DNA of 64,000 nt from an uncultured Alphaproteobacteria bacterium (GCA_963847865.1 CAWKBL010000012.1:967411-1031410), one strand, 5' to 3'; counted from the first letter of the stretch, positions 1 through 42,103 are shown. The notes: generated from the letters alone by a model not told the origin. Numbers and translations: made by a program.

Positions 1-682
1 CGATACCGCGCTCATCGTTGCCGTCGACGTGTCGAACTCCGTCGACGATCAGCGCTACCGGCTGCAGATGGAGGGCATCGCCCAGGCGCTGGAGGATCCC
101 GGCGTCATCCAGGCGATCGTGGGCGGGGCCAAGGGCGGCATCCTGTTCTCGATGGTCACGTGGGCCGACCTTCCCAAGGTGGCGCTGCCGTGGACGCGCA
201 TCGCCAGCGCGGAGCAGGCGCGCGCCGCGGCCAAGCTCGTGCGCACGATGGCGCGCCAAAGCGGGGAGTTCACCTGCATGTCGCGCATGATGCGCTTCGT
301 GTCGGACAAGATGGTGTCGCAGATCCCGGCCAAGGCCGCCAAGGTGGTGCTCGACGTATCGGGCGACGGCCCCGACAACTGCAACTCCGACGAGCCGATC
401 GACGCGGTGCGCGACGAGCTGGTGAAGTACGCGGTGACGGTGAACGGGCTTCCCATCCTGGAGGGCACGGGGGAAGTTGCGGAGGCCCCCGGAGGCGTCA
501 CGAGCCAATCGTATCTGCCGGGCGAGCAGACGAACGCGCCGCTTGAAGACTGGTACCGCGATCACGTCAAGGGCGGGCCCGGCTCCTTCGTGCTGCCCGC
601 CAACGGCTACTCCGACTTCGGCCGCGCGATCCGCCAGAAGTTCGTCCTCGAGGTCAGCCTGCTTTTCCCGTCGCTACCGTGA
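1..682 (+). CDS. DUF1194 (vWA-like) domain protein, 5'-partial; reading frame continues upstream of window
   Basis: ORF 29..682 is in frame with window start; sequence resembles alphaproteobacterial DUF1194 proteins by eye. Confidence 0.55.
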   Translation, partial: DTALIVAVDVSNSVDDQRYRLQMEGIAQALEDPGVIQAIVGGAKGGILFSMVTWADLPKVALPWTRIASAEQARAAAKLVRTMARQSGEFTCMSRMMRFVSDKMVSQIPAKAAKVVLDVSGDGPDNCNSDEPIDAVRDELVKYAVTVNGLPILEGTGEVAEAPGGVTSQSYLPGEQTNAPLEDWYRDHVKGGPGSFVLPANGYSDFGRAIRQKFVLEVSLLFPSLP

Positions 683-692
683 CGCGCTTTCC

Positions 693-1496
693 TCAATCGA
701 CGTAGGCGCGATCGACGTTCTTCATGGTGTTCATGTTGCGGGCGCTCTCCTTGCCGCGCAGCGACAGGAGCCGGGTCGAGTTCACGTCGGCCTTGTTGAA
801 ATTGGCGCCCGTCACGTCGGCCCCGGTGAAATCCGCCCCGCCGAGCTCGCTGCCCATGAGGTTGGCGCCGCGCAGGTTGGCATCCTTGAGGGAAGCGTAT
901 TCCATCATGACGCGGGCGAGGTTGGCGTTCTCGAAGTTGGCGCCTTCCAGGTTGGCCGAGCGGAAGGCCCCGCGCATCAGCCCCATCGACTGGTTCTTCA
1001 TGTCGGCGGAGAGATCGGCGTTCTTGAAGCTGGCGCCTTTCAGGCTGGCGCGGGCAAAGTCGGCGGCGATGCGCGCGCCTTCGAAGTTGGCGCCATCCAT
1101 CTTGGCGTCGCGGAACTGCGTGGAAAAGAGGCTTGCTCCCTTGAAGCTCGCGTTGGTGAAGTCGGATTTGAGCGCCCACGCCTGATCGAGTACGACACCG
1201 TCGAGATTGGCGCCGACGAACTTCGCGTCGTTGATGCGCGCGGACTGCAATTTCAGCTTGCGCAGGTCGAGCCCCGACAGGTCGAGCCCGTTGAGGCGCT
1301 TGCCCGAAAGGTCGGCGACGCCGTCGGCGCCCGCGGCGGCGATAGCTGCAAGCACGTCATCACGGGTCATGTCGGCCTTGGTGAACTCGTCGGATTTCAG
1401 ATCGAGCTGATCGATCATTTCCGTGGCATGCGGGCTGCTGGCGAGCGCGAGCAGCAGGGTCGCCGCGAGAGCCGAAGAAAAGAGCCGGCGCCGCAT
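693..1496 (-). CDS. pentapeptide-repeat protein with N-terminal signal peptide
   Basis: 267 aa; tandem A(D/N)LxxA(N/D)Fxx pentapeptide repeats throughout; hydrophobic N-terminus. Confidence 0.75.
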   Translation of the reverse strand: MRRRLFSSALAATLLLALASSPHATEMIDQLDLKSDEFTKADMTRDDVLAAIAAAGADGVADLSGKRLNGLDLSGLDLRKLKLQSARINDAKFVGANLDGVVLDQAWALKSDFTNASFKGASLFSTQFRDAKMDGANFEGARIAADFARASLKGASFKNADLSADMKNQSMGLMRGAFRSANLEGANFENANLARVMMEYASLKDANLRGANLMGSELGGADFTGADVTGANFNKADVNSTRLLSLRGKESARNMNTMKNVDRAYVD

Positions 1497-1538
1497 ATGT
1501 CATCCTCCACAAATTCTTGTTCTCTTTATTGTCGGCGG

Positions 1539-1739
1539 TCAGAGATCCTGCACGTCGCCTGAGGCGCAGCTCCAGCGCACGATCCGCCAGCCGGGGTGCT
1601 GTGCGGTCCAGTTTGCAAAATGCGGCTGCGCATCCGTCATGCAATGGCTCGGATCGATGCCCGATGCCAACGGGATGCGATAGTTCTTGCATACGCCCGG
1701 GTTGGCCGCGAGGCAGGCTGAGATCACGATTGCGATCAT
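1539..1739 (-). CDS. small hypothetical Cys-containing protein (66 aa)
   Basis: ORF with GAGGAG RBS 5 nt upstream of ATG; 4 Cys; no recognisable family. Confidence 0.3.
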   Translation of the reverse strand: MIAIVISACLAANPGVCKNYRIPLASGIDPSHCMTDAQPHFANWTAQHPGWRIVRWSCASGDVQDL

Positions 1740-1900
1740 GCGAGGCTCCTCGGTTGTTGGTCTTATAGCGCGCCTGGATCAGCACTTTGTAATGTTATTG
1801 CATTGTAGCGCGCGGGTAAATGCCGCGAATTATAGTTCGCGCGGGCCGCGCAAGTGTTACGCCGCGGCCCTCCAGGAGCGCAGATCTTGGGGCAATTTGC

Positions 1901-2710
1901 TCAGGCGGTAATAAGTATTTCGCCTTTGCCGATGGTCGCCAGATCACCGGCGTACTTGCGCACGGGGCCGGCGATGGGCCGGGGTGCCAGCGGACCGAGG
2001 ACGGCTGCGAGATAGCGCGAAAGTATGCGCAGGATCACGAGATCCTGCCTGCCGGTATCGACGAAAGTCGGAAGCATCTTCTCGACGGAAGGGCCGATGA
2101 GGGTCCCGCGCCGCAATAATATGCCCGGCGCCGGCCCAAATCCCTGCTCGGTCCAGATCGTGCCGCCGAGCATGCGCGAGCCGGCGTTCATTCCGCAGCG
2201 TCCGCGCACGATGATGGTTCCCCGCCGCATGCGCTCGCCGGTACGGTCACCGGCATGACCGTCCACGACCACGATGCCGCCGGTCATGCCGAAGGAGTCG
2301 CCCACCCGCTGCCCGCCGATGAACCCGCCGGCGGAGCCCTTGACGTAGACGAGGCCGCCCGCGAGCCCGGAGGCAAGCCACGGGCCGGCGTCGCCGCGGA
2401 TCTCCAGCTTGCCGCCGCGCATCGAGCGGCCGGCGCACATGCCGGCATCGCCTTCGACGATCACCGTGCCCTGGTCGAGCTCGGCGCCGATGAAATCGAG
2501 ACGGCTCGAGCCGCCGGCAATCGTCACCGTGTCGCCGGCCTTGCCCGAAACCGAGAAGACGTCTCCGACCGTCAGCTTGCGCTTCGAGGTGCCGACGACG
2601 AGCCGGGCGATGTCGCCGGGGGATATGGCGGCGAGGTGGCTCGGGGTCAGCTTCGAAAGATCGAGGCGCTCGTCGGGGACGGCTACGAGCCGGAAGGTCA
2701 GACCGCTCAT
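1901..2710 (-). CDS. fhcC: formyltransferase/hydrolase complex subunit C (FwdC-like)
   Basis: 269 aa from MSGLTFRL...; Gly-rich beta-helix repeats (GGxxxG) typical of FwdC/FhcC; ATGA overlap with upstream fhcD stop; intact. Confidence 0.85.
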   Translation of the reverse strand: MSGLTFRLVAVPDERLDLSKLTPSHLAAISPGDIARLVVGTSKRKLTVGDVFSVSGKAGDTVTIAGGSSRLDFIGAELDQGTVIVEGDAGMCAGRSMRGGKLEIRGDAGPWLASGLAGGLVYVKGSAGGFIGGQRVGDSFGMTGGIVVVDGHAGDRTGERMRRGTIIVRGRCGMNAGSRMLGGTIWTEQGFGPAPGILLRRGTLIGPSVEKMLPTFVDTGRQDLVILRILSRYLAAVLGPLAPRPIAGPVRKYAGDLATIGKGEILITA

Positions 2711-3605
2711 GGCAGCAGATCCAACAAATGATAATGATGCTGGCCGAGCTTGCCGCCATAGTTGCCGGCGGTGACCCTGCGTCACGCCCTTGGCGGCGCC
2801 GATGCCGACGATCGTCTTGAGCGCCGCCCTCATGGCGTCGGCAACGGCTTTCGAGGTCAGGCCGTCGATGACGATCTCGAGCACGGCGACGACGTCGGGG
2901 CCAAGCTCGCTTTTGACGCGGCCGCGCAACGTCGGGCAGAAGGCATCGTTGGTCGAGGCGACCATGCCCTTGTACTTGGCGCCGACCTTAGAGCCGGAGC
3001 GGACGATGCCGCCCGGGAAGGGCGTGATCACGTCGGGGACCTCGGCGATCGCGGCGACCGCCCTCTGCCGCGGTGAGCAGGCCGGCGCGGTCGGGGCCGA
3101 GGATCAGCATGTTGCCGCCGCCGACCGCGTCGGTCATGATGCCGGTCGTCTCCTCGACCACGAACTCGCCGTCCATGACGGGCACGCGCCAGTAGCGGCT
3201 TTCGCCCAGCCGCTTCGCGGTCTGGAAGCCGTCGCCGAAAAAGCGCGGGCCTTGCCGAGCGCGATCCGCTTCTTGGCCTCGAGGCCCGCGTAGCAGGCCG
3301 AGCCGGGGCTCGTCAGCACGCATTGGCCGACGCGGTTCTTGAGCTGCGGGACGAGCGCGTCGGGCGAAAAGCCGAACAGCAGCACGCGCACGCCGGGGCG
3401 GCCGTCCGGCGTCTCGTCGGGCTTGAGCTCGCGGTCGATGCCGCCCTCGGCGCCGCAGCCGATGACGGAGGTGCCGAAGCCGGTCATGGTCACGGCGGCC
3501 ACTGCGCGCCCAGTGCGGCGTATCGGCGGTGATGACGACGCCGGTGGCGCTCATGCCGAAGGCCTCGGCGAAGGTGTCGTCGATCGTGATGCCGTTGACC
3601 TTCAT
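2707..3605 (-). pseudogene. fhcD: formylmethanofuran:H4MPT formyltransferase FhcD (Ftr), interrupted by about 4 frameshifts (may be sequence error)
   Basis: N-terminus MKVNGITIDDTFAEAFGMSATG, middle TGFGTSVIGCGAEGGIDREL and C-terminus GNYGGKLGQHHYHLLDLLP* are found in alternating frames. Confidence 0.7.
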
Positions 3606-5267
3606 GACACGCTGGCCTTGGTCGGTTGCACGATGAGCGGGCCGCGGCCGCCGTCGATGATCTCCTCGTCGGAGAGGCGGAAGTTGTCCATGCGCACGGT
3701 GTGATAGCGGTCGAAGTAGTCCTTGAGCGACTTCTCGATGCGCGCGATCGTATTCCGGCCGCGCCACGTGCGTGGCCCCTTGCACGACCTTGATGACCTT
3801 GCCGTCGCGCACGATGAGCTCGCCGTTCTTGAAGACGAGCTCGGGCTTCGTGAACATCGCCTCGCGGTCGGGGTCGTCGTTATAGACGGTGATGTCGGCG
3901 CAGGCGCCGACGCCCAAGTGGCCGCGGTCCTTGAGGCCCAGGCTGCGCGCCGGACCGGCTCGGGTCATGATCGGCGATCTCGTAGAGGGAGTATTCGCGC
4001 TCGAGCGACGGGAGCGTGCTGTTCTTGAGGGCGTCGGGATGCACCTTCTGCATCATGTCGTTGCGGAAGCGCTGTCCATCAGCAGCCGGATGAGATGCGG
4101 GTAGGTGTGAACGGCGCGCCATTGGGGTGGTCCGTCGTCAGGAACATGCGCCAGGGATCCTTGAACAGCAGGAACATCTCAAGCCCGATCGCCCATTGCA
4201 GCGCGTTGACGAAGCTCTTGTCGCGATAGCGGAACGGGACGACGCCGCAGCCGGCGTCGCACTCGATGTCCATGACGACCCATCGCTTGGGGTCGCGGCT
4301 GGCGCCGTTGTACTGGCGCATGGTGTCGCCCGAGGCGGTGCAGGTCTGGCCGAACATGACCTGGCCGACGTCGATGGAGATGTTCGGGTTCTTGCTTGAG
4401 CAGCTCGGCGATGCGGCGCGGCACCGGAGCGAGAAGTGGCGGTCGCCTTCGGTCGCCGTAGCTGTGGAACTGGATGTGGGTCAGATGGATCGGCAGGCCT
4501 TCGGCGCCGCTGATGGTCGCGAGCGTCGTCTCGACGTTGCCGGGAACGCCGAGGTTGCAGCCGTGGACGTGCAGGGGATGGGTGACGCCGAGCTCGTGCA
4601 GTCCGCGCGCAAGCGTCACGATGATGTCGCGCGGCGTGACGCCGTAATAGACGTGCTTCTCGTCGAGATCGAGCTTGCGCTGGTTGAACTTGAAGGCGCT
4701 GATGCCGCCGGGATTGACGACCTTGACGGCGATCGCCTGGGCGGCGTGCATCGTCCAGGCGATATAGTCCTTGATCGCGAGAAGTCCTTCTTGCCGGCGA
4801 TCTGGCGCAGGAGGAAATCGTCGTTGCCGAGCATGACGAAGGCGCCCTTGTCGATGATCGGCGTGTCGGCCATCTCCATGTGCGCCTGACGCGCGTTGGC
4901 GGGCAGCATCGCCGGCTCGAAGCCGGCGGTGTAGCCCATCTCGGCGTAGCGATAGCCCGTGATCATGCGTCGAGGGCAGGCGTGCCGGTGCCGGCGCGCG
5001 TGAGCGCGGTGTGCGCGACCTCGTCGGCGCAGTGATCCTCGGGCAGCAGCGTGCGCGCGATCGTCACCTTGCCGCCGCCGATGTGCGTGTGCGGATCGAT
5101 GGCGCCCGCCATGACGATGTTGCCATGGACGGTCGTATTCCTGGTCGATGCGGCGCTTCGGGCGCCGGCGCAACGATGCGGCCGTCCTCGATGTAGATGT
5201 CGCGCACCTCGCCGTCGACCATGTTGGCGGGGTCGTAGACTTTTCCGCCGGTGAGCTTGATGATCAT
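3602..5267 (-). pseudogene. fhcA: FhcA (FwdA-like amidohydrolase) with at least 6 frameshifts (may be sequence error)
   Basis: N-terminus MIIKLTGGKVYDP..., HVHGCNLGVPGN and C-terminus ...DYFDRYHTVRMDNF...* are spread over 5-6 ORF fragments in different frames; stop overlaps fhcD ATG. Confidence 0.7.
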
Positions 5268-5285
5268 CCGCGATGCTCGCGAATT

Positions 5286-6642
5286 CTAGAGGGCTGTTTC
5301 GATTTTGGCGAGCACGTCGGCTGCGCGCGGCAAGCGCGATCGGCCGAGATTCTTCAGCGGCAGCGACACGACGTTGTCGCAACGGACCACGTCCGGCATG
5401 GTCGACGCCCGGGCGTGCCGACCGGAATGAAGACGTTCGGCGGCTGGCTCAGCCTGATGCCGGGCGTGACCGAGAACGATCGTCGGGATGCGGTCGCGGG
5501 CGGCACGAGGTCGGGCGAGAGGGAGGTGAGCCAGAAAAGAAGATCGCCCTCGTTCTCGGCGAGCATGCGGCCGATCGAGTAGCGGTAGGAATCGTACTCG
5601 GGCTTGCCGGTTGCGAAGCTGACGCGCAAGAGGAAAGCCCGACTGCCAGGTCGCGACGGCGGCGGCCGTCGGCGCGCCTTCGTTGCCGCCGAGCGAGAGG
5701 CCAGCGAAGCGCGTCGTGACGTTGATTTCCTTCACGATCTCGGAGATGAGGTGCACGGCAAGGTCGGCGTGCGGGAAGTTCAGGCCCGGCGGGGCCCACA
5801 CCATCACGCCGTAGCTTGCGCCGCCTTGCATTTTCGCGAGGCATCGAAAAGCGAGAGCTTGACGCCGGCGATTCCCGGCGCGGCACGCCGCCGTCGCGCG
5901 AGCGCGAGCAGCAGCGCCGAGAGGATGCCGCTGCGCTTCGCGGGCCGCCGTCTCGTGGTCGTTGAGCGGCGCACCGCGCAAGCGCGCACGCAGTACGCCA
6001 GCACCTCGGTCAGGCGCTCGCTCGGGCAGGGATCTTGATGACTTCGCCGATGCGCGGCCCGTTGGCTGTCGAGGTGTCGAGCCCTCGCCGATGAAGACCA
6101 CGGTGCGTTTGGAGGACGTGTCGGCGAACATGGAACTGCCGGGCAGACGATGCGCTCGAAAAAGCGGCCGTGCAACTCGTGGACGTCGGTGCCGACGATG
6201 ATGAAAAGATCGGCGCGGTTGCGTGCCTCGGTGAGCGTGGACATGATCCAGCCGCTCGTCTGCAGCACCTTCAAATTGCGGAACTGCGCTTCGCTCAGAG
6301 CGTGGTCGACGATGCCGCCGGCTTTTTCGGCGAGCGACATGACGGCGCGGATGCCGTCGACGTCGGTGGCGAGGCCACCGAAGAGCGGGAAGCTTGGCCT
6401 TGATGCAGCGGGCGGCGGCCGGGATGGCCTCGTCGAGCGAGACCTCCTTGCCCTCGACCTGCGGGCTTGGCCGTGGGGAGGATGCGCTCGAAGCCGGCGA
6501 CCGACTGTGCGCAGCCGTTCTTCAGGACTTTCAGGCGGTCCCGGTGCGCGCGATCTCGAGATCGTCGCAAAGGAGTCCGCAAAACGGGCAAGTGACATTC
6601 TCGTAGAGTTCGGAAGCGGCTCCTCGCCGGATCCAACGCCTG
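5286..6642 (-). pseudogene. fhcB: FhcB (FwdB-like) with multiple frameshifts; 5' end approximate
   Basis: NVTCPFCGLLCDDLEI, LKVLKNGCAQSVAGFERI, LFGGLATDVDGIRAVMSLAEKAGGIVDH and GASYGVMVWAPPGLNFPHADL lie in different frames. Confidence 0.6.
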
Positions 6643-6825
6643 TGCAGCTCATGTCGATGCAGTCTCCCTCGCGCGGGCCGCAACAAAGCACGGACGCCGC
6701 TCAAAACAACACCGGCGCGAATGCGGCGCTTTGCCGGGGCGCCGGCAATTGCGAAGGCTTTGTCCCCGCCACTATGGTCGGCGCCCGAGGCGCGCCAGAA
6801 ACATTAGAGACCCGGAGGAAGCCTG

Positions 6826-7359
6826 ATGTAGAAGCACTTGTGTTGGGGTCGGCCGTTCTGGCCCTGTTGCCCGTTGCTGCGTCCGCTCACGGCCGAGCCG
6901 CCAGAAGGTGACCGAGACGGTCGAGATCAACGCATCTCGCCGACAAGGTGTGGAAGGTGATCGGCAATTTCCAGGACATGAGCTGGCATCCGGCCGTCGC
7001 CAAGCTGAGGGCACGCGGCGGCAACGACCGCCAACGCAACGCGCACGCTGACGCTCAAGTCGGGCGGCACGATCGAGGAGAAGCTCGACAAGTACGACGC
7101 CCGAAAAGATGACAGTACAAGTACGAGATCACCAACGTCGACGTGAAGGTTCTTCCCGTCAACGACTATCTCGTCGATCTAGCGTGAAGGGCGAGGGCGA
7201 CAAGTCGACGGTCGAATGGCGCGGCGCGTTTCTATCGCGGGTACATGAACAATGATCCGCCGCCCGAGCTCAACGACGAGGCGGCGATGAAGGCGGTCGA
7301 GCGGCCTCTACCGCGGCGGCCTCGATGCGCTGAAGAAGAAGCTCGAGGCTGGCGGCTGA
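6826..7359 (+). pseudogene. MxaD-like SRPBCC (polyketide cyclase-like) periplasmic protein, frameshifted; ATG is followed immediately by TAG in frame
   Basis: Signal peptide ALVLGSAVLALLPVAASAHG, then KVWKVIGNFQDMSWHPAVAK and TLTLKSGGTIEEKLDKYDA in shifting frames; GGAGGAAG RBS. Confidence 0.5.
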
Positions 7360-7364
7360 GGATC

Positions 7365-8335
7365 GGGCGTGCGCACGCACTTTTCGCGGGTTGCCTGCGC
7401 CGCGCCGGTGCGGTGCTCGCCGCCGCGCGGCTTTGGCCGGCGCGCGCGATTGCCGCGGAGCGCTCCGCGCGTCACCGAAGCCTTCGTCACCGATCAGACG
7501 GGCGATTCGCTGTCGATCGTCGGATCTCGACGACGCTGCGGGTCGCGCAAACCATGAAGATCGGCGGCAAGCCGGCCGGCATCGCCATGTCGGGCGACGG
7601 CAAGCGCGTACATCACCGCGCCCGAGGGCAAGGAGCTCATCGTCGTCGATGCCGTGACGCGCGGCTCGTCAAGCGCATGAAGGTCGGCGAGGGACCGCTC
7701 GGCGTCGCGGCCCATCCCACGAACGGCCGCGTCTACGTCGCCGACTGGTACACGCACAAGATCTACGTCGTCGATCCCGACGCCGGCGCGATCGTCAGCG
7801 AGATCGAGGTCGGGCAAGTCGCCCTCCGGCCTCGCGGTCACGCCCGACGGGCGGCTGCTGCTTAGCGCCGACCGCGACAGCAACGCGGTGTCGTTCATCG
7901 ATGCGGCAAACGAATGCGCGCCTCGGCACGGTGCCGGTCGGCGACGCGCCCTTCGGCATCACCATCGATCGCGAGGGCGGCGCGCCTATACCGCGAACGT
8001 CGGCAGCAACGACGTGAGCGTGATCGACATCGCGAGCCGCAAAGTGATCGCGACGGTTCCGGTCGGGAGGCGCCCCTACGCGGTGGCGCTGGCCGGCGGG
8101 CGCGCGTTCGTGACCAACCAATACGGCGGAACGGTCAGCGTCATCGATACTGGCGAGCTGAAGGTGATCAAGACGATCGAGGTCGGCGACCATCCCGAAG
8201 GGATCGAGGCCGATGCGGCGCGGAGACTACGTCTATGTCGCCTGCTGGTTCGACAACGTGCTGCAGCGCATCGATGCCGCCAGCATGACTCACGGGGGAG
8301 GCAGCGGTCGGCGACGGTCCGCGCGCCTTCGGCCT
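7365..8335 (+). pseudogene. YVTN-family beta-propeller repeat protein, frameshifted; ends approximate
   Basis: Repeated blades (...RVYVADWYTHKIYVVD..., ...RAYTANVGSNDVSVIDIASRKVIATVPVG..., ...AFVTNQYGGTVSVIDTGELKVIKTIEVG...) across 3 frames. Confidence 0.55.
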
Positions 8336-8522
8336 TTTTCTGCGCTGAGGCGACCCCGCCGCGGCCGCCCTGGCGAGGATCTTGCTCATGCAGGTGCGGT
8401 TCCCGCCGCCGGTGCATGACCAATCGTTAAGGATTCGCGCTGTGGACGGGCGCGCGCCTCAGAGGTTAGAACAGGCCCCAAAGGCTGGGCTTCAACAACT
8501 TGAATAGGAAGGAAACTCGAGT

Positions 8523-9227
8523 ATGCGGGTCTCTAGTGGGAGCGGCGCCCTTTTGGCGCTCATCGTCGCGCTCTGGTCCGGTGCTGGCTCGGCGGCAGTC
8601 GCGGCCGATCCGCTGACCGCGGTCAACATCATCTTCGAGCAAAAGCACCTTTTGAACGTGGAGCAGGGCAAAGAGCTCGACTACAAGTTCAGCCGGACTG
8701 TTTCGAACCCGCAGCTTCTGGGTGAGCCGTTCAAGGACAACGTCACCTTGAAGGTTGTGGGCGAGAAGCCCACCGGAGAGCGCGACGTCGATCTGCAGAT
8801 CTATACGGGCGACCGCGCGCGCGACCTGCAGAAGCTGCCGGGTCTCTTCGTCAATCCGGTTTTTCAGGTCTATTTCAGCCAGGCGGTCAACAGCATGGGC
8901 ATGCTGTCCGGGGGCAAGACGCCTTATCTGACGCGAGCCTTCTCGCTGGGGTTCAAGGACAAGGCGAAGGTCGAGCCGACTAAGGTCGAATACCAGGGCA
9001 AGAAGGTCGACGCCTACCGCATCTCGATGGTGCCTTATGCCGGCGACAGGAACGAGTCCAAGATGCAGGGGTGGGAAGGGGCCGAGTACACGCTCGTCGT
9101 GAGCGACCAGGTCCCCGGCGAAATCGTCGACCTTGTCGCCAACTACAAGAACAAGTACCCCGGTGATCTCCGGCTCGTCGAGCGCTACACGCTCGACGGC
9201 GTGACCGGCGTGGAGGATATCAAATGA
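8523..9227 (+). CDS. hypothetical secreted protein (234 aa), intact, no family recognised
   Basis: Signal peptide LLALIVALWSGAGSAAVAA; intact ORF in a frameshift-rich neighbourhood; ATGA overlap with next ORF. Confidence 0.6.
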   Translation: MRVSSGSGALLALIVALWSGAGSAAVAADPLTAVNIIFEQKHLLNVEQGKELDYKFSRTVSNPQLLGEPFKDNVTLKVVGEKPTGERDVDLQIYTGDRARDLQKLPGLFVNPVFQVYFSQAVNSMGMLSGGKTPYLTRAFSLGFKDKAKVEPTKVEYQGKKVDAYRISMVPYAGDRNESKMQGWEGAEYTLVVSDQVPGEIVDLVANYKNKYPGDLRLVERYTLDGVTGVEDIK

Positions 9228-9581
9228 AGCTGCGATCTCTACTGTTGGCCGGGGTGCTGACCGCTGCCGGCGCAGGCACGATGGCACGCGCCGTGGAGCT
9301 GCCCGTCAATGACTACCCGACGTATGCCCGCGCCGATTACGTGTTCGCGTGCATGCAGACCAACGGCCGGACGCGCGCCTGCGCTCGAGAAGTGCTCCTG
9401 CTCCATCGATCAGATCGCGGCGCTGCTGCCGTTCGACGAATACGAGCAGGCCGAGACGATCCTGTCGGTGCGCCAGAAGGGCGGCGAGAACGTCACGATG
9501 TTCAACAGCTACGCGCCGCTGCTCGAGAAGGTGAAGAACTTGAAGCGCGCGCAGGTCGAAGCGGAGCTTCGCTGCTTCTGA
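9224..9581 (+). CDS. hypothetical secreted protein (about 118 aa) with one apparent frameshift near 9375
   Basis: Signal peptide MKLRSLLLAGVLTAAGAGTMA; C-terminal half continues in ORF 9309..9581 frame (...QIAALLPFDEYEQAE...ELRCF*). Confidence 0.45.
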
Positions 9582-9636
9582 GGGAAGCGGAGCTTCGCTG
9601 CTTCTGACGGGAACTTGCGCAGGGCGCCAAAGAATT

Positions 9637-16111: not shown

Positions 16112-16151
16112 CCCTCACGAAGGTTCCCGGATCCTCACGCAGGTTCCTGAA

Positions 16152-16169
16152 GCCCGGCTGCTGCCGGGC
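16152..16169. terminator. hairpin GCCCGGC-tgct-GCCGGGC between convergent genes
   Basis: 7-bp perfect stem between the CXXCW gene (+) and the 16179..17019 gene (-); weak T-tracts. Confidence 0.35.
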
Positions 16170-16178
16170 CTATGGCCC

Positions 16179-17019
16179 TCAGTTCTTCATTTCGGCCCGG
16201 ATCAGCTTGGCGACCTCGTAGGCGCGCTGCTCGATGAGGGTCGGGATCTCGCACGCCATCGTCAGGTTCTGCTGGCGGTCCTGGAAGATGCGCGCGTTCC
16301 AATTGTACTCCTGCTGCTCGGCGCGTCAGCTTGGTGTCCCTCGGGCCCAGCTGCTCTTCGGCGGGAATATTCTGGTCCATCGAGGCGAGCTTCTGGCCCT
16401 CGCGCTCGATCTCGTCGGCACGGGCCTTCTGGCGCCGCTGGAACTGCTCGATGCGCTGCATGACGAACTTGCGATCGGTATTGATCTTCGCGAGCACGCT
16501 GGCGAAAAGCCCGGTCAGCTTCGTGTCGCGCTCGCCCTCCGGCTGACTCTGGGCATATTCCTTGATCGCCTTCTCCGCGTCCTCGATCGCAACGCGGCGG
16601 CTTTGAAGGTAGGTCGTCAGCTCTCTAATCTTGTCGTCGCTCTCCCAGCCCTTCACCTCGTCAACCGGGGGGCCGTCCCAAATCTGCGCCGACGTCAGCT
16701 CCGCCACCTTGCGCTGCACGCAGGGCCAATCGGGGCTGCCCTTGGTCGAGGCCTCCTCCGCCGCGGGAGCGCTGCTGTCGGGCGAGGTATCGCCGACCTT
16801 GGGTGCATTGGGGGCAACCGTCGGCGCGAGGGGCGCTGTGTCACCGACCTGCGGCTGGTTGGGCAGGACCGTCGGCATTGCCGGGGTAACCGATAGGTCG
16901 GGGGCGGCTGCCTTCCCGCCGGTCTCGGCGGCAGGCTCTGCGGCAGCGGCCGAAAGTGCGAGCAGGCCTGCAAAACAGGCGCTGGCGATCATTCGTGCGG
17001 CGGTGTTCGTGTTTTGCAT
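16179..17019 (-). CDS. hypothetical periplasmic protein with Ala/Pro-rich linker, last gene of ABC operon; one frameshift near 16330
   Basis: Signal peptide MIASACFAGLLALSAAAA; PxxP-rich low-complexity segment; C-terminal domain unassigned; start 5 nt after permease stop. Confidence 0.5.
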
Positions 17020-19912: not shown

Positions 19913-21386
19913 TCATTGTGTGTATGCCGTGCATTTGGTTTCGGGCCTGTCGAGGCCCAGCGTGTCGAGCTCGGTGAACTGATGCAGGAAGCCCGGCTGC
20001 GGCGAGACGCTCACGAGAAGCTTCGGCGTGGCGACGAGCACGGGCTGGCGCAGCTGGCCGTTCCAGTTGCGCACGGAAAGGCCCACGCCCTTGAAGGCGG
20101 CGATCTCGAACTTGGGCGACCTCATGTAGGCGACGAGATCCTGATAGGCGGGTGTCTTGGAGCGCGATGCGGCCTCGCCCACCATGCGCGCGGCCATCCA
20201 CGCGTTGTAGTCCTTGGGAAGCATGGTGCGGTCCGCCATGCGCTTGAAGCGGTTCTGGAACTGCGTGCCGCCCCACAGCTCGATCGCCGGGTGCCAGCTC
20301 GAGGGGACGAGGCCCGCAGTGCCCGCGACGGGCCGTGCATCCCAGGTCCGGTAGGGCAGGTAGTCGCCGAACAGGTTGCCCTCATCGGCAACGACGAGCA
20401 CGTCGTAGTCGGGCGCGTTTTGCGTGAAGGTGGGGATCTGCTGCTGTATCTGCTCATAGCCGCCGTCGGAGCGCCGGCTGCCAGGCTGATACTGGAAGGT
20501 CCGCTCCTCGACGATCTTTGCCCCGAAGCGCTTGGCGGCGCGCCGCAGCGCATCGGCGAAGAGCTTGTCGTTCTCCTGGGGGCCAAGCACGAGGAACCAG
20601 CGGTTCCACTTCTTCCATATGAGGTATTGGGCGAGCGCATCGGCCAGCATCGTTCGCGTGGGCGCGGTGTGCATGACGTGAGGGCGGCAATCCTCCTCGC
20701 GCAGGCGATCGTCGGCCGCGCCGTAGTTGATGATCTGCGCCTCCTTGCCGGCAAGCGCATCGGCGAGCTTCAACAGCGTCTGCGGGCCTACGTCGGCAAG
20801 GATGAAGTGGGCGCCGGCGTCGACCTTCTGCACGACATCCTTGATGAGCGTGTCCGGGTTTGCCGCCTCGACGACGTCGAGTTTGAACTGTTGGTTCATG
20901 AAGCGGCCGGTCGTGTTGTTGTCCTTGATTGCGAGCTTGGCGCCGGCGATGCCGAGGTCGGCGGGCGGAAGGTCGAGCAGGGATATCGGGAGTGGCTCGT
21001 CGCGCTGCTCGCGCGCGAGCACGATCGGGATGACGACCATGTCCTTGCCGGTGGCGCCGGCTTCGGGTTGGGCCGCTGCCGCGGGGGCGGCCCGTCCTGC
21101 GGTCGGTTCCGTTGCGGGCGCTGCTGGAGCTTGCGCTGCCGGCGCAGGAGCGGTTTGCTCCGCGGGCGCAGGAGGAGTTTGCGCCGCCGGCGCAGGAGGA
21201 GCTTGGGTCGCGGGTGCAGCCGGTGTCTCCTGGGCCTCCTGGGCTCCTGGCGCTCAAAGCTCCAGCGGAGAGCGCCAACGCCACCAGCAACATCATCGCC
21301 AGAGCGCCGCGCGCGGCTGTCGCCCTCGTGCCGATGCGCGATATCAACGACTGTGCGCCTGCTGCCATCAAGACCGCTTCTCCCAT
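19913..21386 (-). CDS. ABC transporter substrate-binding protein (PQQ-dependent catabolism-associated) with N-terminal Ala/Pro-rich repeat linker; start approximate, one frameshift in the linker
   Basis: Type I periplasmic binding fold (375 aa core) preceded by the signal-peptide-like stretch MMLLVALALSAGALSA and an APAPAAQTPPAPAEQTAPAPAAQ linker. Confidence 0.75.
21128..21212. repeat. about 24-bp imperfect tandem repeats (x3) encoding Ala/Pro/Gln-rich linker of the binding protein
   Basis: gcgcaggagcggtttgctcc / gcgcaggaggagtttgcgcc / gcgcaggaggagcttgggtc. Confidence 0.6.
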
Positions 21387-37058: not shown

Positions 37059-37994
37059 GTTCGCCAGCGTGGAAGGATGAGCCGGTGTCGAGATTGGAAA
37101 CGGTGACCGCGGCGGGGCTGAACAACATGGGATCGATCTTGTAGAAGTCGCCGTTGACGGCGGCGAAGATCTCGGCGAACGGCTTGCCGTAGGAGGCGCT
37201 TCCCCGGCTCGGGAGCTCGTCGGCGAGCTTTTTGGCCGCCTCGTCGCTGCCGCGCACGAAAAGCTCCACGCGGCCGCCGTAGATGATGGCGTCGTTGGTG
37301 CGCCCCATGGCCTTTACGAAATCAGGCACGGGCGGCGCGATCGGCGCGGTGCCCACGCCATCCTCAATGTGGTCCAGCGGGAAGTGCAGCTCGTGCGCTT
37401 TGTGCAGCGCCACCTCGAGCACGCGGGCGACGACCTGCGTGCTGCCGGCGAGGCTTCCCGTGGGGGCGAACAGGATGGTGAGGTCGGCGGGCGCCACGCC
37501 GCAATCGCTGGCGACCTTGCGCACGAGCGCAGGCGGGGGCGGCTTGTCGCCTTCGATGACGAGCGCGGCCTTGCTGTAATGATCGACGTAGTCCAGCTCC
37601 TTGAACAGCTCCTCCTTGCGCGACAAGGCCCGGGCAGGGCCCGATCCGAGGGCGAAGAAGCCGGTCTCCTCATCGCTCATGGTCCAGCCGCCGTACTGGC
37701 TGCCGAGACAGGCGAGCACGGGGTTGGAGGAGTGAACGGTGACGCCGAGCGGCCAGCGCGCGACGCCCGATGCCGTGTTGAAGGTCACGATGCCGAGGCC
37801 GCCCATGCAGATCTCGGCGAGCCGCCGTCCGGCTTCGAGACCTCCGGGCGTCGCCGCGCCAAGATCGATACGGCGCTCGCCCGCCTCTCCGATCGAGACG
37901 ATGCAGCGCAAGGCGGCGGCGTCGGCGACGAGGGCGTCAACGAGCTTGGCCGCTCGCGCCGAAACGCTCGGGGCGGGGCCGAGGTATTTTTGCA
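37024..37994 (-). CDS. mch: methenyl-H4MPT cyclohydrolase
   Basis: 323 aa from MQKYLGPAP; Mch-like sequence throughout; N-terminal extension in the track ORF is spurious. Confidence 0.85.
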
Positions 37995-39127
37995 TTCGTG
38001 TGCTCCGTGTCTGCCGCCCGTCCATATAGCATGCGAGCCAATTCGTCCAAGCGCCGTCGGCAATTGTCGGCGGCAGCTGTAGCGGTTTCGCCGGACGCAA
38101 AGACCGTCGCGACGGGCTTGTGGCGCGGGATTGAGGTGCCGGGCATGGGCCGATCGGCCGTCCATTGCGGCCAGGACGGGGTCCCCACCGTGAGGGCATC
38201 GCTGTCGGCATAGAGAATGGCGGCCGCGCGCGGCCCCTGCGGCGCCGGCAGCGTGAAGTCATGGCCGCGGCAGGCCGCGATATGCGCTGCAAAGAGGCCG
38301 CCTGAGGCGTCGTCGAAGAGGTCGAGCGTGGCGCTGGGACGGGGGTTGGCCTCCAACAGGAATGGAACGCCGTTCTCGAGCAGGAAATCGAAGGAAACGA
38401 GCCCGACGAGCCCGAGGGCGCCGCAGACGGCCTCGACCGCCGCCGTCATGCGCGTCTCGATCGCCTCCCCGAGGCGGACAGGGCCGGCCGCGCCGCCATA
38501 TCGGAAGGGGCGGGGCTCGACGCCGACGACCCATTGGCGGCTAAAGCCCGCGATGGCGACGGAGCGGGCACCGGCCACGGCAAGCACTGAGACCGGCTCG
38601 CCGCCCATCCGGCGCTGGAAGTAGCGGGCGCGGCTCGTCTTTGCCAACGGACAGGCGAGGACGTGGGCGCCGCCGCTTCCCCCGATGCGTTTGGAAAGCC
38701 ATCCGTGCGGATCTTGCGGGGGCGCAAGGCGCGTTTCGGGATGAGGGATAGCAAGGGCATCGAGCAGCGGGAAAAAAGCGGCTGGGTCCTTTGCTCGCGC
38801 GATTGCTTCGGCTCCGTTGCCGAGGAGCGAGACGTGCCGCTCGAGCGTCGCGACGAGCTTGGGCGTGTCCTCAAAGCCCGACCCCAGCACGAGCCCGATG
38901 GGCGGGCGCTTGCCCTCGCCTGCGAGCGCGTGAAGCGCCGCCAGCAGCGGCCGGGCGCGGAAGCCGGCGCGCGTCGCTTGCGCAAGGCAGCGATGGGCGC
39001 CGGCACCGGCGCGCATATCGGCGTCCCCGAAAGCGTCGACGACCAACGGGGTCAAACCTGCGCGCAGGGCAGAGGCTGCAAGCGCCCGCCCTGACAGCGC
39101 GGCAATGAGAACTGTGTCCTGCGTCAA
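37937..39127 (-). CDS. ATP-grasp domain protein (H4MPT biosynthesis, orf5-like); 3' end overlaps mch start, possible frameshift
   Basis: ATP-grasp architecture; operon position between mtdB and mch. Confidence 0.55.
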
Positions 39128-41592: not shown

Positions 41593-42103
41593 ATGCCTGC
41601 ACCGAAGCATCCTCGGGCTTCGACCGACCTCGATTGCATCATCGCGCTCGGCTCCAATCTCGGCGACAAGTCCGCCAATATCGACACGGCGATCCGCCTG
41701 CTGATCGAGCCGGGCGACGTACGGCTCGTACGGCGTTCGCGTAACTTTGCGACCGACCCCTGGGGCAAGATCGACCAGGACCGGTTCGTCAACGCATGCA
41801 TCGGCGTCGCGACCGGGCGTCGAGCCGCGCGAGCTGCTCGCGCGCTGCCAGGAGATCGAGCGCCGCATGGGCCGCGTCCCCACCGAGAAGTGGGGGCCGC
41901 GCGTCATCGATCTCGACCTGCTGGTTTACGGCGATACGGCCATCTCGGAGCCCGATCTCGTTCTCCCGCACCCCCACATTGGTGCGCGCGCCTTCGTTCT
42001 CGCTCCGCTCATGGACATCGCGCCCGATCTGCGGATCGGGGGCAGGCCCGTGCGCGAGCTCTACGCCGCGATCGATCTGGGCGGCGTGCAGCCGCTTGAT
42101 TGA
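41593..42103 (+). CDS. folK: 6-hydroxymethyl-7,8-dihydropterin pyrophosphokinase (FolK type), one frameshift near 41815
   Basis: IIALGSNLGD N-terminus in one frame; ...RVIDLDLLVYGD...LVLPHPH... in the other. Confidence 0.65.

Follow-up and report, generated by a model that had tools for sequence, protein, structure and literature searches.

The locus described here raises the question of whether five adjacent genes of a methylotrophy gene island, three of them belonging to the formyltransferase/hydrolase (Fhc) complex, have been lost by an organism or only by its assembled sequence. It lies in a window of 64,000 nucleotides (nt) from an uncultured Alphaproteobacteria bacterium (GCA_963847865.1, CAWKBL010000012.1:967411-1031410), with a G+C content of about 66%, in which fhcB, fhcA, fhcD and fhcC follow each other on the minus strand while an MxaD-like gene and a beta-propeller gene stand on the plus strand. 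As deposited, fhcD, fhcA, fhcB, the MxaD-like gene and the propeller gene cannot be read through, and the initial annotation had offered both true pseudogenisation and a low-quality stretch of assembly as explanations. The analyses below make it very likely that positions 2779-8288 reflect a local failure of consensus quality, arising either from near-raw long reads or from a pile-up of mixed populations, and not a biological state. Judged from their restored sequence, the five genes would then most likely be intact and functional in the organism.

Frameshifts were located with our own frameshift-aware protein-to-DNA aligner, using as references the orthologues from four independent related loci (L002, L003, L004 and L006). 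The alignments, together with one site at a start codon, yielded a minimum of 48 indels that change the frame, all of them between 2779 and 8288 and about one per 115 nt, and all four references returned the same sites (4 in fhcD, 12 in fhcA, 15 in fhcB, 7 in the MxaD-like gene and 8-9 in the propeller gene; positions in Table 1). The frame switches reported in the initial annotation, given there as at least 15, are therefore real, their number having been underestimated about three-fold. The start-codon site is a further loss of 1 nt in the MxaD-like gene, whose ATG (6826-6828), preceded by a GGAGGA ribosome-binding site, runs directly into TAG (6829-6831), as had been noticed before, where the relatives have M-V or M-L. 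Even 48 is a lower bound, because an additional compensating -1/+1 pair near 7000-7015 of the same gene is likely to have been missed by the aligner: the window reads KLRARGG there, against K(L/I/T/V)EG(Q/K)GG in all relatives.

The patch is sharply delimited. On the left it begins within fhcD, 69 nt from the 3' end, and on the right it reaches to 57 nt from the stop codon of the propeller. No supported shift was found in the gene at 693-1496, in the open reading frame (ORF) of 66 amino acids (aa) at 1542-1739, in fhcC, in the gene at 8523-9227, or in the SoxYZ-like, lactamase_B and xoxF genes, which bears out the earlier statement that fhcC and xoxF are intact. The only calls in the flanking genes were shifts at the N-terminal edge, each from a single reference (g266 and SoxYZ with L006; LacB with L004). 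At the rate seen inside the patch, the chance of finding no shift at all would be 0.0012 for fhcC (807 nt) and 0.0028 for 8523-9227. A Viterbi segmentation based on codon usage, which needs no reference, cut the stretch 2712-8285 into about 43 segments that each keep one frame for about 90 nt, compared with segments of mostly 0.4-1.8 kb outside the patch. The remainder of the window carries about one indel per 14.6 kb, so that the patch is enriched about 127-fold.

The indels themselves are small and balanced. We counted 23 insertions and 18 deletions of 1 nt, 5 deletions of 2 nt and 2 insertions of 2 nt, that is, 25 insertions against 23 deletions, with no event above 2 nt and no deletion bias, and the net change in length per gene ranges from -4 to +4 nt. 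Spacing between sites is compatible with an exponential distribution (Kolmogorov-Smirnov, KS, p 0.21), positions are compatible with a uniform one (KS p 0.24), and the rate is homogeneous among the five genes (chi-square p 0.24). The patch covers both strands and the intergenic DNA without regard to gene boundaries; the indel pattern is a property of a stretch of sequence and not of selection on genes. No link to homopolymers was found, the mean longest run within 3 nt being 2.28 at the observed sites and 2.29 at simulated random sites in the region, and only one of 46 sites lies near a run of four or more. The idea of homopolymer indels, the form in which an assembly artefact had first been proposed, does not hold for this patch, since its sites are no nearer to runs than random positions are. 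Nor did we find repeats flanking the patch, or a second copy of it in the window, that could account for failed polishing.

Two other ideas were set aside. Programmed frameshifting or recoding was dismissed, given 48 sites of both signs without a shared motif. The shifted columns are poor in invariant residues (22% against 52%) but the adjoining columns on either side are not (50% against 52%, p 0.39); we draw from this no conclusion that shifts avoid conserved residues, as the depletion is most simply explained by the aligner sacrificing the cheapest residue.

Once the frames are restored, the five genes resemble genes under ordinary constraint. No in-frame stop codon was found in any of them with any reference, and the frame-corrected lengths match those of the relatives (553 against 553-555 aa, 299 against 299-302, and 176-177 against 176-181). 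The ratio of nonsynonymous to synonymous substitution rates (dN/dS), computed against L006 and L003, the two closest of the intact loci fetched first, is 0.15-0.27 in the five broken genes and 0.11-0.29 in six intact neighbours. Distances from the window to its relatives, divided by distances among the relatives, amount to 0.76-0.87 where the genes are broken and to 0.75-1.10 where they are intact. Of 281 columns that show no variation among 120 full-length homologues, FhcA retains 275, and two of five deviations adjoin a frameshift. By these sequence comparisons, the frame-restored codons are evidently under the same purifying selection as their intact neighbours.

Decay in place would be expected to look different. 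Substitutions outnumber indels roughly ten-fold in neutral bacterial DNA, and the decay of bacterial pseudogenes is deletion-biased with a broad range of indel sizes. Taken together, these tendencies mean that 48 real indels should have been accompanied by substitutions in the hundreds, by at least a dozen stop codons and by some deletions of larger size; the patch shows nothing of the kind. Among the marks of a decaying pseudogene, the window shows disrupted frames, but neither relaxed selection, nor nonsense substitutions, nor a deletion-biased and broad indel spectrum. The marks of a low-quality patch are better represented: indels are in excess without an excess of substitutions, the affected segment is bounded, uniform and independent of genes and strands, and patches of this kind recur in other assemblies.

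This recurrence became apparent when the same locus was inspected elsewhere. The orthologous locus is intact in L002, a binned metagenome genome, and in L004-L007; an isolate genome is among these intact loci, and L004 is the complete genome of Hyphomicrobium sp. MC8b. Locus L001, by contrast, has a patch of 24 shifts within 2.15 kb, of which fhcA carries 16, with one stop codon, and fhcD 8, beside clean fhcB, fhcC and MxaD-like genes and clean outer flanks. This locus belongs to the Microflora Danica collection, whose assemblies were built with Flye from Nanopore data only and then polished once with Medaka (PMC12313526). Within the L001 patch, no homologue shares more than 73.6% identity, compared with 94% just ahead of it, and this stretch may be chimeric, or may contain many substitution errors as well. 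Further clusters were found in L020 (14 shifts over 4.4 kb, 4586-9013), L019 (8 shifts, 5111-6821) and L009 (3 shifts, 4550-5833); all three lie in or next to the fhc operon, consist mostly of +1 shifts and occur in contigs with Flye-style names. L019 and L020 were chosen for their truncated FhcD and are therefore a biased sample, unlike L001 and L009, and the technology is documented for L001 only. Shift positions common to the window and L001 (FhcA residue 399; FhcD residues 118 and 120) are not above chance. The protein database also holds many FhcD fragments of 110-230 aa that lie within contigs of 40-600 kb.

One contig from an independent data set belongs to the same species. A search with FhcC found a 99%-identical protein on L008, a Joint Genome Institute (JGI) contig of 2152 nt (Ga0673032_0196753, metagenome 3300081966), which matches window positions 614-2766 at 99.16% DNA identity, with 17 substitutions and one intergenic indel of 1 nt over 2153 nt. 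This match indicates that the flank of the window is accurate and that the species is present in an independent data set.

Several observations weigh against a failure of consensus quality, or leave it less well supported than one might wish. L008 reaches only as far as window position 2766, which leaves 13 nt to the first shift, and near-identical sequence across the patch was not found, the best FhcA match being 84%. An exact 32-mer of the MxaD-like gene gave nine matches among metagenome contigs, all from distant relatives with 65-77% identity. Further searches also returned little, as no near-identical fragment above 86% was found with the FhcD C-terminus and a scan of genome contigs with FhcC gave only two relatives of 71-73% identity. 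Concentration of errors in homopolymers, a typical though not obligatory mark of a low-quality patch, is missing here, and its absence is atypical of the best-known residual errors of Nanopore, 454 and Ion Torrent sequencing. A density of 0.87% would moreover need almost unpolished sequence. Finally, we infer the artefact from the indel pattern alone, and the sequencing technology of the window and the cause of the local drop in quality are likewise deduced. What the data give directly is the indel pattern with its sharp limits, the finding that no sign of relaxed selection is present, and the fact that patches of this kind turn up again in other metagenome contigs of the island.

Against these reservations stand the alternatives, each of which has to account for the same pattern. 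Genuine pseudogenisation would mean that the Fhc complex, the MxaD-like gene and the propeller were lost and are decaying in place while the other genes of the tetrahydromethanopterin (H4MPT) pathway were kept. In favour of such a loss, none of the five neighbouring genes can be read in its present form, and the segment is a functional neighbourhood conserved across Hyphomicrobiaceae. A loss of this kind had been considered in the initial annotation; every test that we ran nevertheless argues against it (stops, lengths, dN/dS, divergence and indel spectrum). Forty-eight frameshifts are accompanied by zero nonsense codons; dN/dS is not raised, the branch of the lineage is not lengthened and the invariant FhcA columns are kept. 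Gene lengths are unchanged, all indels measure at most 2 nt without deletion bias, and the hundreds of substitutions expected alongside are missing. It is also difficult to reconcile with a spared fhcC, which lies directly downstream and encodes part of the same complex, and with limits that disregard gene boundaries. Our literature search found no report of fhc pseudogenes, and we regard this explanation as highly improbable. A very recent, localised hypermutation producing indels only, for instance by error-prone repair synthesis at a DNA break, over a tract of 5.5 kb would suit the sharp limits, the uniform density and the lack of divergence, all of which fit a single recent event. A cell that had lost five genes would, however, have had to become the assembled consensus, and like patches at other positions in other contigs point to a technical cause. 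To our knowledge, no natural process gives about 1% of mixed +1, -1, +2 and -2 indels without substitutions outside homopolymer runs, and frameshift mutagenesis of the polymerase IV type has a strong bias to -1 events in runs, so that hypermutation appears scarcely credible.

An insert from a rarer organism, joined through conserved fhc sequence and error-rich owing to its low coverage, is an alternative of another kind. L001 behaves in just this way, its identity falling inside the patch as described above, and the independent short-read contig L008 breaks exactly at the conserved C-terminus of FhcD. In the window, however, the corrected proteins rank the relatives as the intact flanks do (L006 level with L003, followed by L002 and then by L004) and at the same relative distances, synonymous divergence (dS) is within range and there is no compositional step. 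We consider such a chimera very unlikely, and it would in any case be an artefact as well. The end of L008 at the start of this highly conserved segment (AGNYGGKLG) may mark a branch point of the assembly graph among related populations, one at which different assemblers would break alike, which would mildly support an artefact of mixed populations, or it may be a coincidence. Were the indels real after all, the organism would be a Hyphomicrobiaceae methylotroph in which a tract of fhcD, fhcA, fhcB, MxaD-like and propeller genes had been freshly killed by an unexplained, localised, indel-only process, with fae, mch, mtdB, fhcC and xoxF kept; the probability that we give to this is very small. 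If true, it would imply a new mutational mechanism as well as formaldehyde oxidation that bypasses the Fhc complex.

A failure of consensus quality, the low-quality stretch of the initial annotation, is thus the explanation that the lack of stops, the kept lengths, the neighbour-like dN/dS and the unbiased indels of 1-2 nt support. We hypothesise that the contig sequence of these about 5.5 kb derives from a very small number of error-prone long reads of near-raw quality, with roughly 1% indels, or alternatively that reads of related populations sharing the conserved methylotrophy island were mixed in one pile-up. Random insertions and deletions of single bases would have survived polishing there or been introduced by it, while in the remaining contig polishing brought the indels down to about one per 15 kb. 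The window resembles the residual errors of long-read data (Nanopore or PacBio continuous long reads, CLR) in that indels dominate while substitutions are not visibly raised, in that the split pieces of genes rejoin into full-length conserved proteins, and in the isolated shifts elsewhere. The same kind of patch occurs in L001, from the Nanopore-only assembly (PMC12313526), and in L020, which bears a Flye-style name. The patch of the window differs from typical residual errors in its extreme density, its confinement to 5.5 kb and its lack of homopolymer bias. It is established that errors in long reads can turn genes into apparent pseudogenes by way of frameshifts (PMC12007338). With the decay of bacterial pseudogenes during reductive genome evolution, the window has in common that several adjacent genes have disrupted frames, but it lacks stops, relaxed constraint, deletion bias, events above 2 nt and loss of length.

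Gene identities were derived from translations, from NCBIfam and Pfam matches of the frame-corrected products and from conserved gene order, and they agree with those that had been proposed from the sequence at the outset, with fhcC, fhcD, fhcA and fhcB now placed on the minus strand. Frame-corrected fhcD (TIGR03119, 409 bits, cut-off 292.6) and fhcA (TIGR03121, 731 bits, cut-off 392.75) cover their whole NCBIfam profiles, and FhcD is 84-87% identical to its counterparts in L002, L003 and L006. FhcB, queried with 15 masked residues, scored 256 bits against TIGR03129 (NCBIfam cut-off 327.8), and its assignment is backed by synteny with the intact fhcB of L002-L007 and L009. The frame-corrected MxaD-like product matches Pfam PF10604 (Polyketide_cyc2, 106 bits, profile positions 2-142 of 142), and the propeller product matches NCBIfam TIGR02276 (beta-propeller repeat, 199 bits) and TIGR03866 (176 bits). 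The product of 8523-9227 had no Pfam match.

Table 1. Genes of the locus with the frameshift sites called in each, and the comparable patch in L001.
Feature	Position	Strand	State	Frameshift sites
Pentapeptide-repeat gene	693-1496		Intact	
fhcC	1901-2710	-	Intact, 269 aa; TIGR03122 209 bits, cut-off 130.65; left flank of patch	
fhcD (formylmethanofuran--H4MPT formyltransferase)	2707-3605	-	4 frameshifts, 0 stops; frame-corrected product 299 aa	2779, 3062, 3252, 3500
fhcA (FwdA-like amidohydrolase subunit)	3602-5267	-	12 frameshifts, 0 stops; frame-corrected product 553 aa	3743, 3972, 4072, 4107, 4391, 4416, 4429, 4451, 4776, 4985, 5128, 5153
fhcB (FwdB-like subunit)	5286-6652	-	15 frameshifts, 0 stops	5391, 5404, 5465, 5493, 5627, 5838, 5960, 6000, 6029, 6082, 6138, 6395, 6465, 6535, 6624
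MxaD-like SRPBCC gene	6826-7359	+	8 frameshifts, including one directly after the start codon	6829, 6891, 6938, 7029, 7108, 7170, 7226, 7299
YVTN-type beta-propeller gene	~7369-8348	+	8-9 frameshifts, 0 stops; start codon uncertain	7455, 7522, 7608, 7663, 7815, 7903, 7970, 8215, 8288
234-aa gene of unassigned family	8523-9227	+	Intact, 0 frameshifts against four references; right flank of patch	
Patch in L001	7828-9980 (and 4840, 5090)		24 shifts	

Seven related loci have a common gene order: xoxF, lactamase_B, SoxYZ-like, a 119-aa gene, a 235-aa gene, propeller, MxaD-like, fhcB, fhcA, fhcD, fhcC, a 66-aa gene and the pentapeptide-repeat gene. The start codon of fhcC overlaps the stop codon of fhcD (ATGA). 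On the minus strand, the 66-aa ORF at 1542-1739 (MIAIVISACL...) contains cysteine and has no family match; it is conserved as the next gene after fhcC in most of those related loci whose genes were called (L003, L005-L009, L020). Between the divergent fhcB and MxaD-like genes, a stretch at window positions 6660-6745 is nearly identical to L006 8520-8600 (CGCGCGGGCCGCAACAAAGCACGGACGC ... AATGCGGCGCTTTGCCGGGG), while the proteins of L006 are only 71-87% identical to those of the window; on its sequence, this stretch may represent a shared regulatory element.

Outside the patch, isolated frameshifts occur in about 4 of about 55 genes, none of them at a long homopolymer, and this fits a contig of long-read quality. 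Most of those listed in the initial annotation could be located. The shift in 9224..9581 is by alignment a +1 insertion at 9377 in the conserved 119-aa gene, and that in folK lies near 41815, with positions 1-55 and 57-116 of the Pfam HPPK profile matched in two frames. Two more are probable, namely the one in 16179..17019, near 16325 in the part encoding the C-terminus of the gene at 16135-17019, and the one in 21100..21250, near 21250 between the signal peptide and the Ala/Pro-rich linker of a periplasmic binding protein. The possible shift in 37937..39127, on the other hand, resembles an ordinary overlap between genes. At 9558-9609, a 26-nt tandem duplication containing a perfect 17-nt repeat (GAAGCGGAGCTTCGCTGCTTCTGA twice) copies the final codons of the 119-aa gene together with its stop; the sequence is present as a single copy in L003, L004 and L006.

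Taken at face value, the deposited sequence would suggest a methylotroph without the formyltransferase/hydrolase step of H4MPT-dependent formaldehyde oxidation, and an automatic annotation would list five genes as pseudogenes, or else a dozen short ORFs that are spurious. The Fhc complex in question is the formyltransferase/hydrolase enzyme FhcABCD described for Methylorubrum extorquens (PMC6926001), and the window has the same four genes, in the order fhcB-fhcA-fhcD-fhcC and with equivalog matches for FhcD, FhcA and FhcC; it is unlike the M. extorquens system in that three of the four are unreadable as deposited, and it is ordinary once the frame is restored. Indel-dense patches on the kilobase scale, set beside clean sequence, are a recurring feature of metagenome contigs that carry this island, and at least one such contig stems from a Nanopore-only assembly; genomes of this type need frameshift-aware checks when their pseudogenes are counted or their completeness is estimated. 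Since the genes are judged to be intact in the organism, metabolic reconstruction should count the Fhc complex as present.

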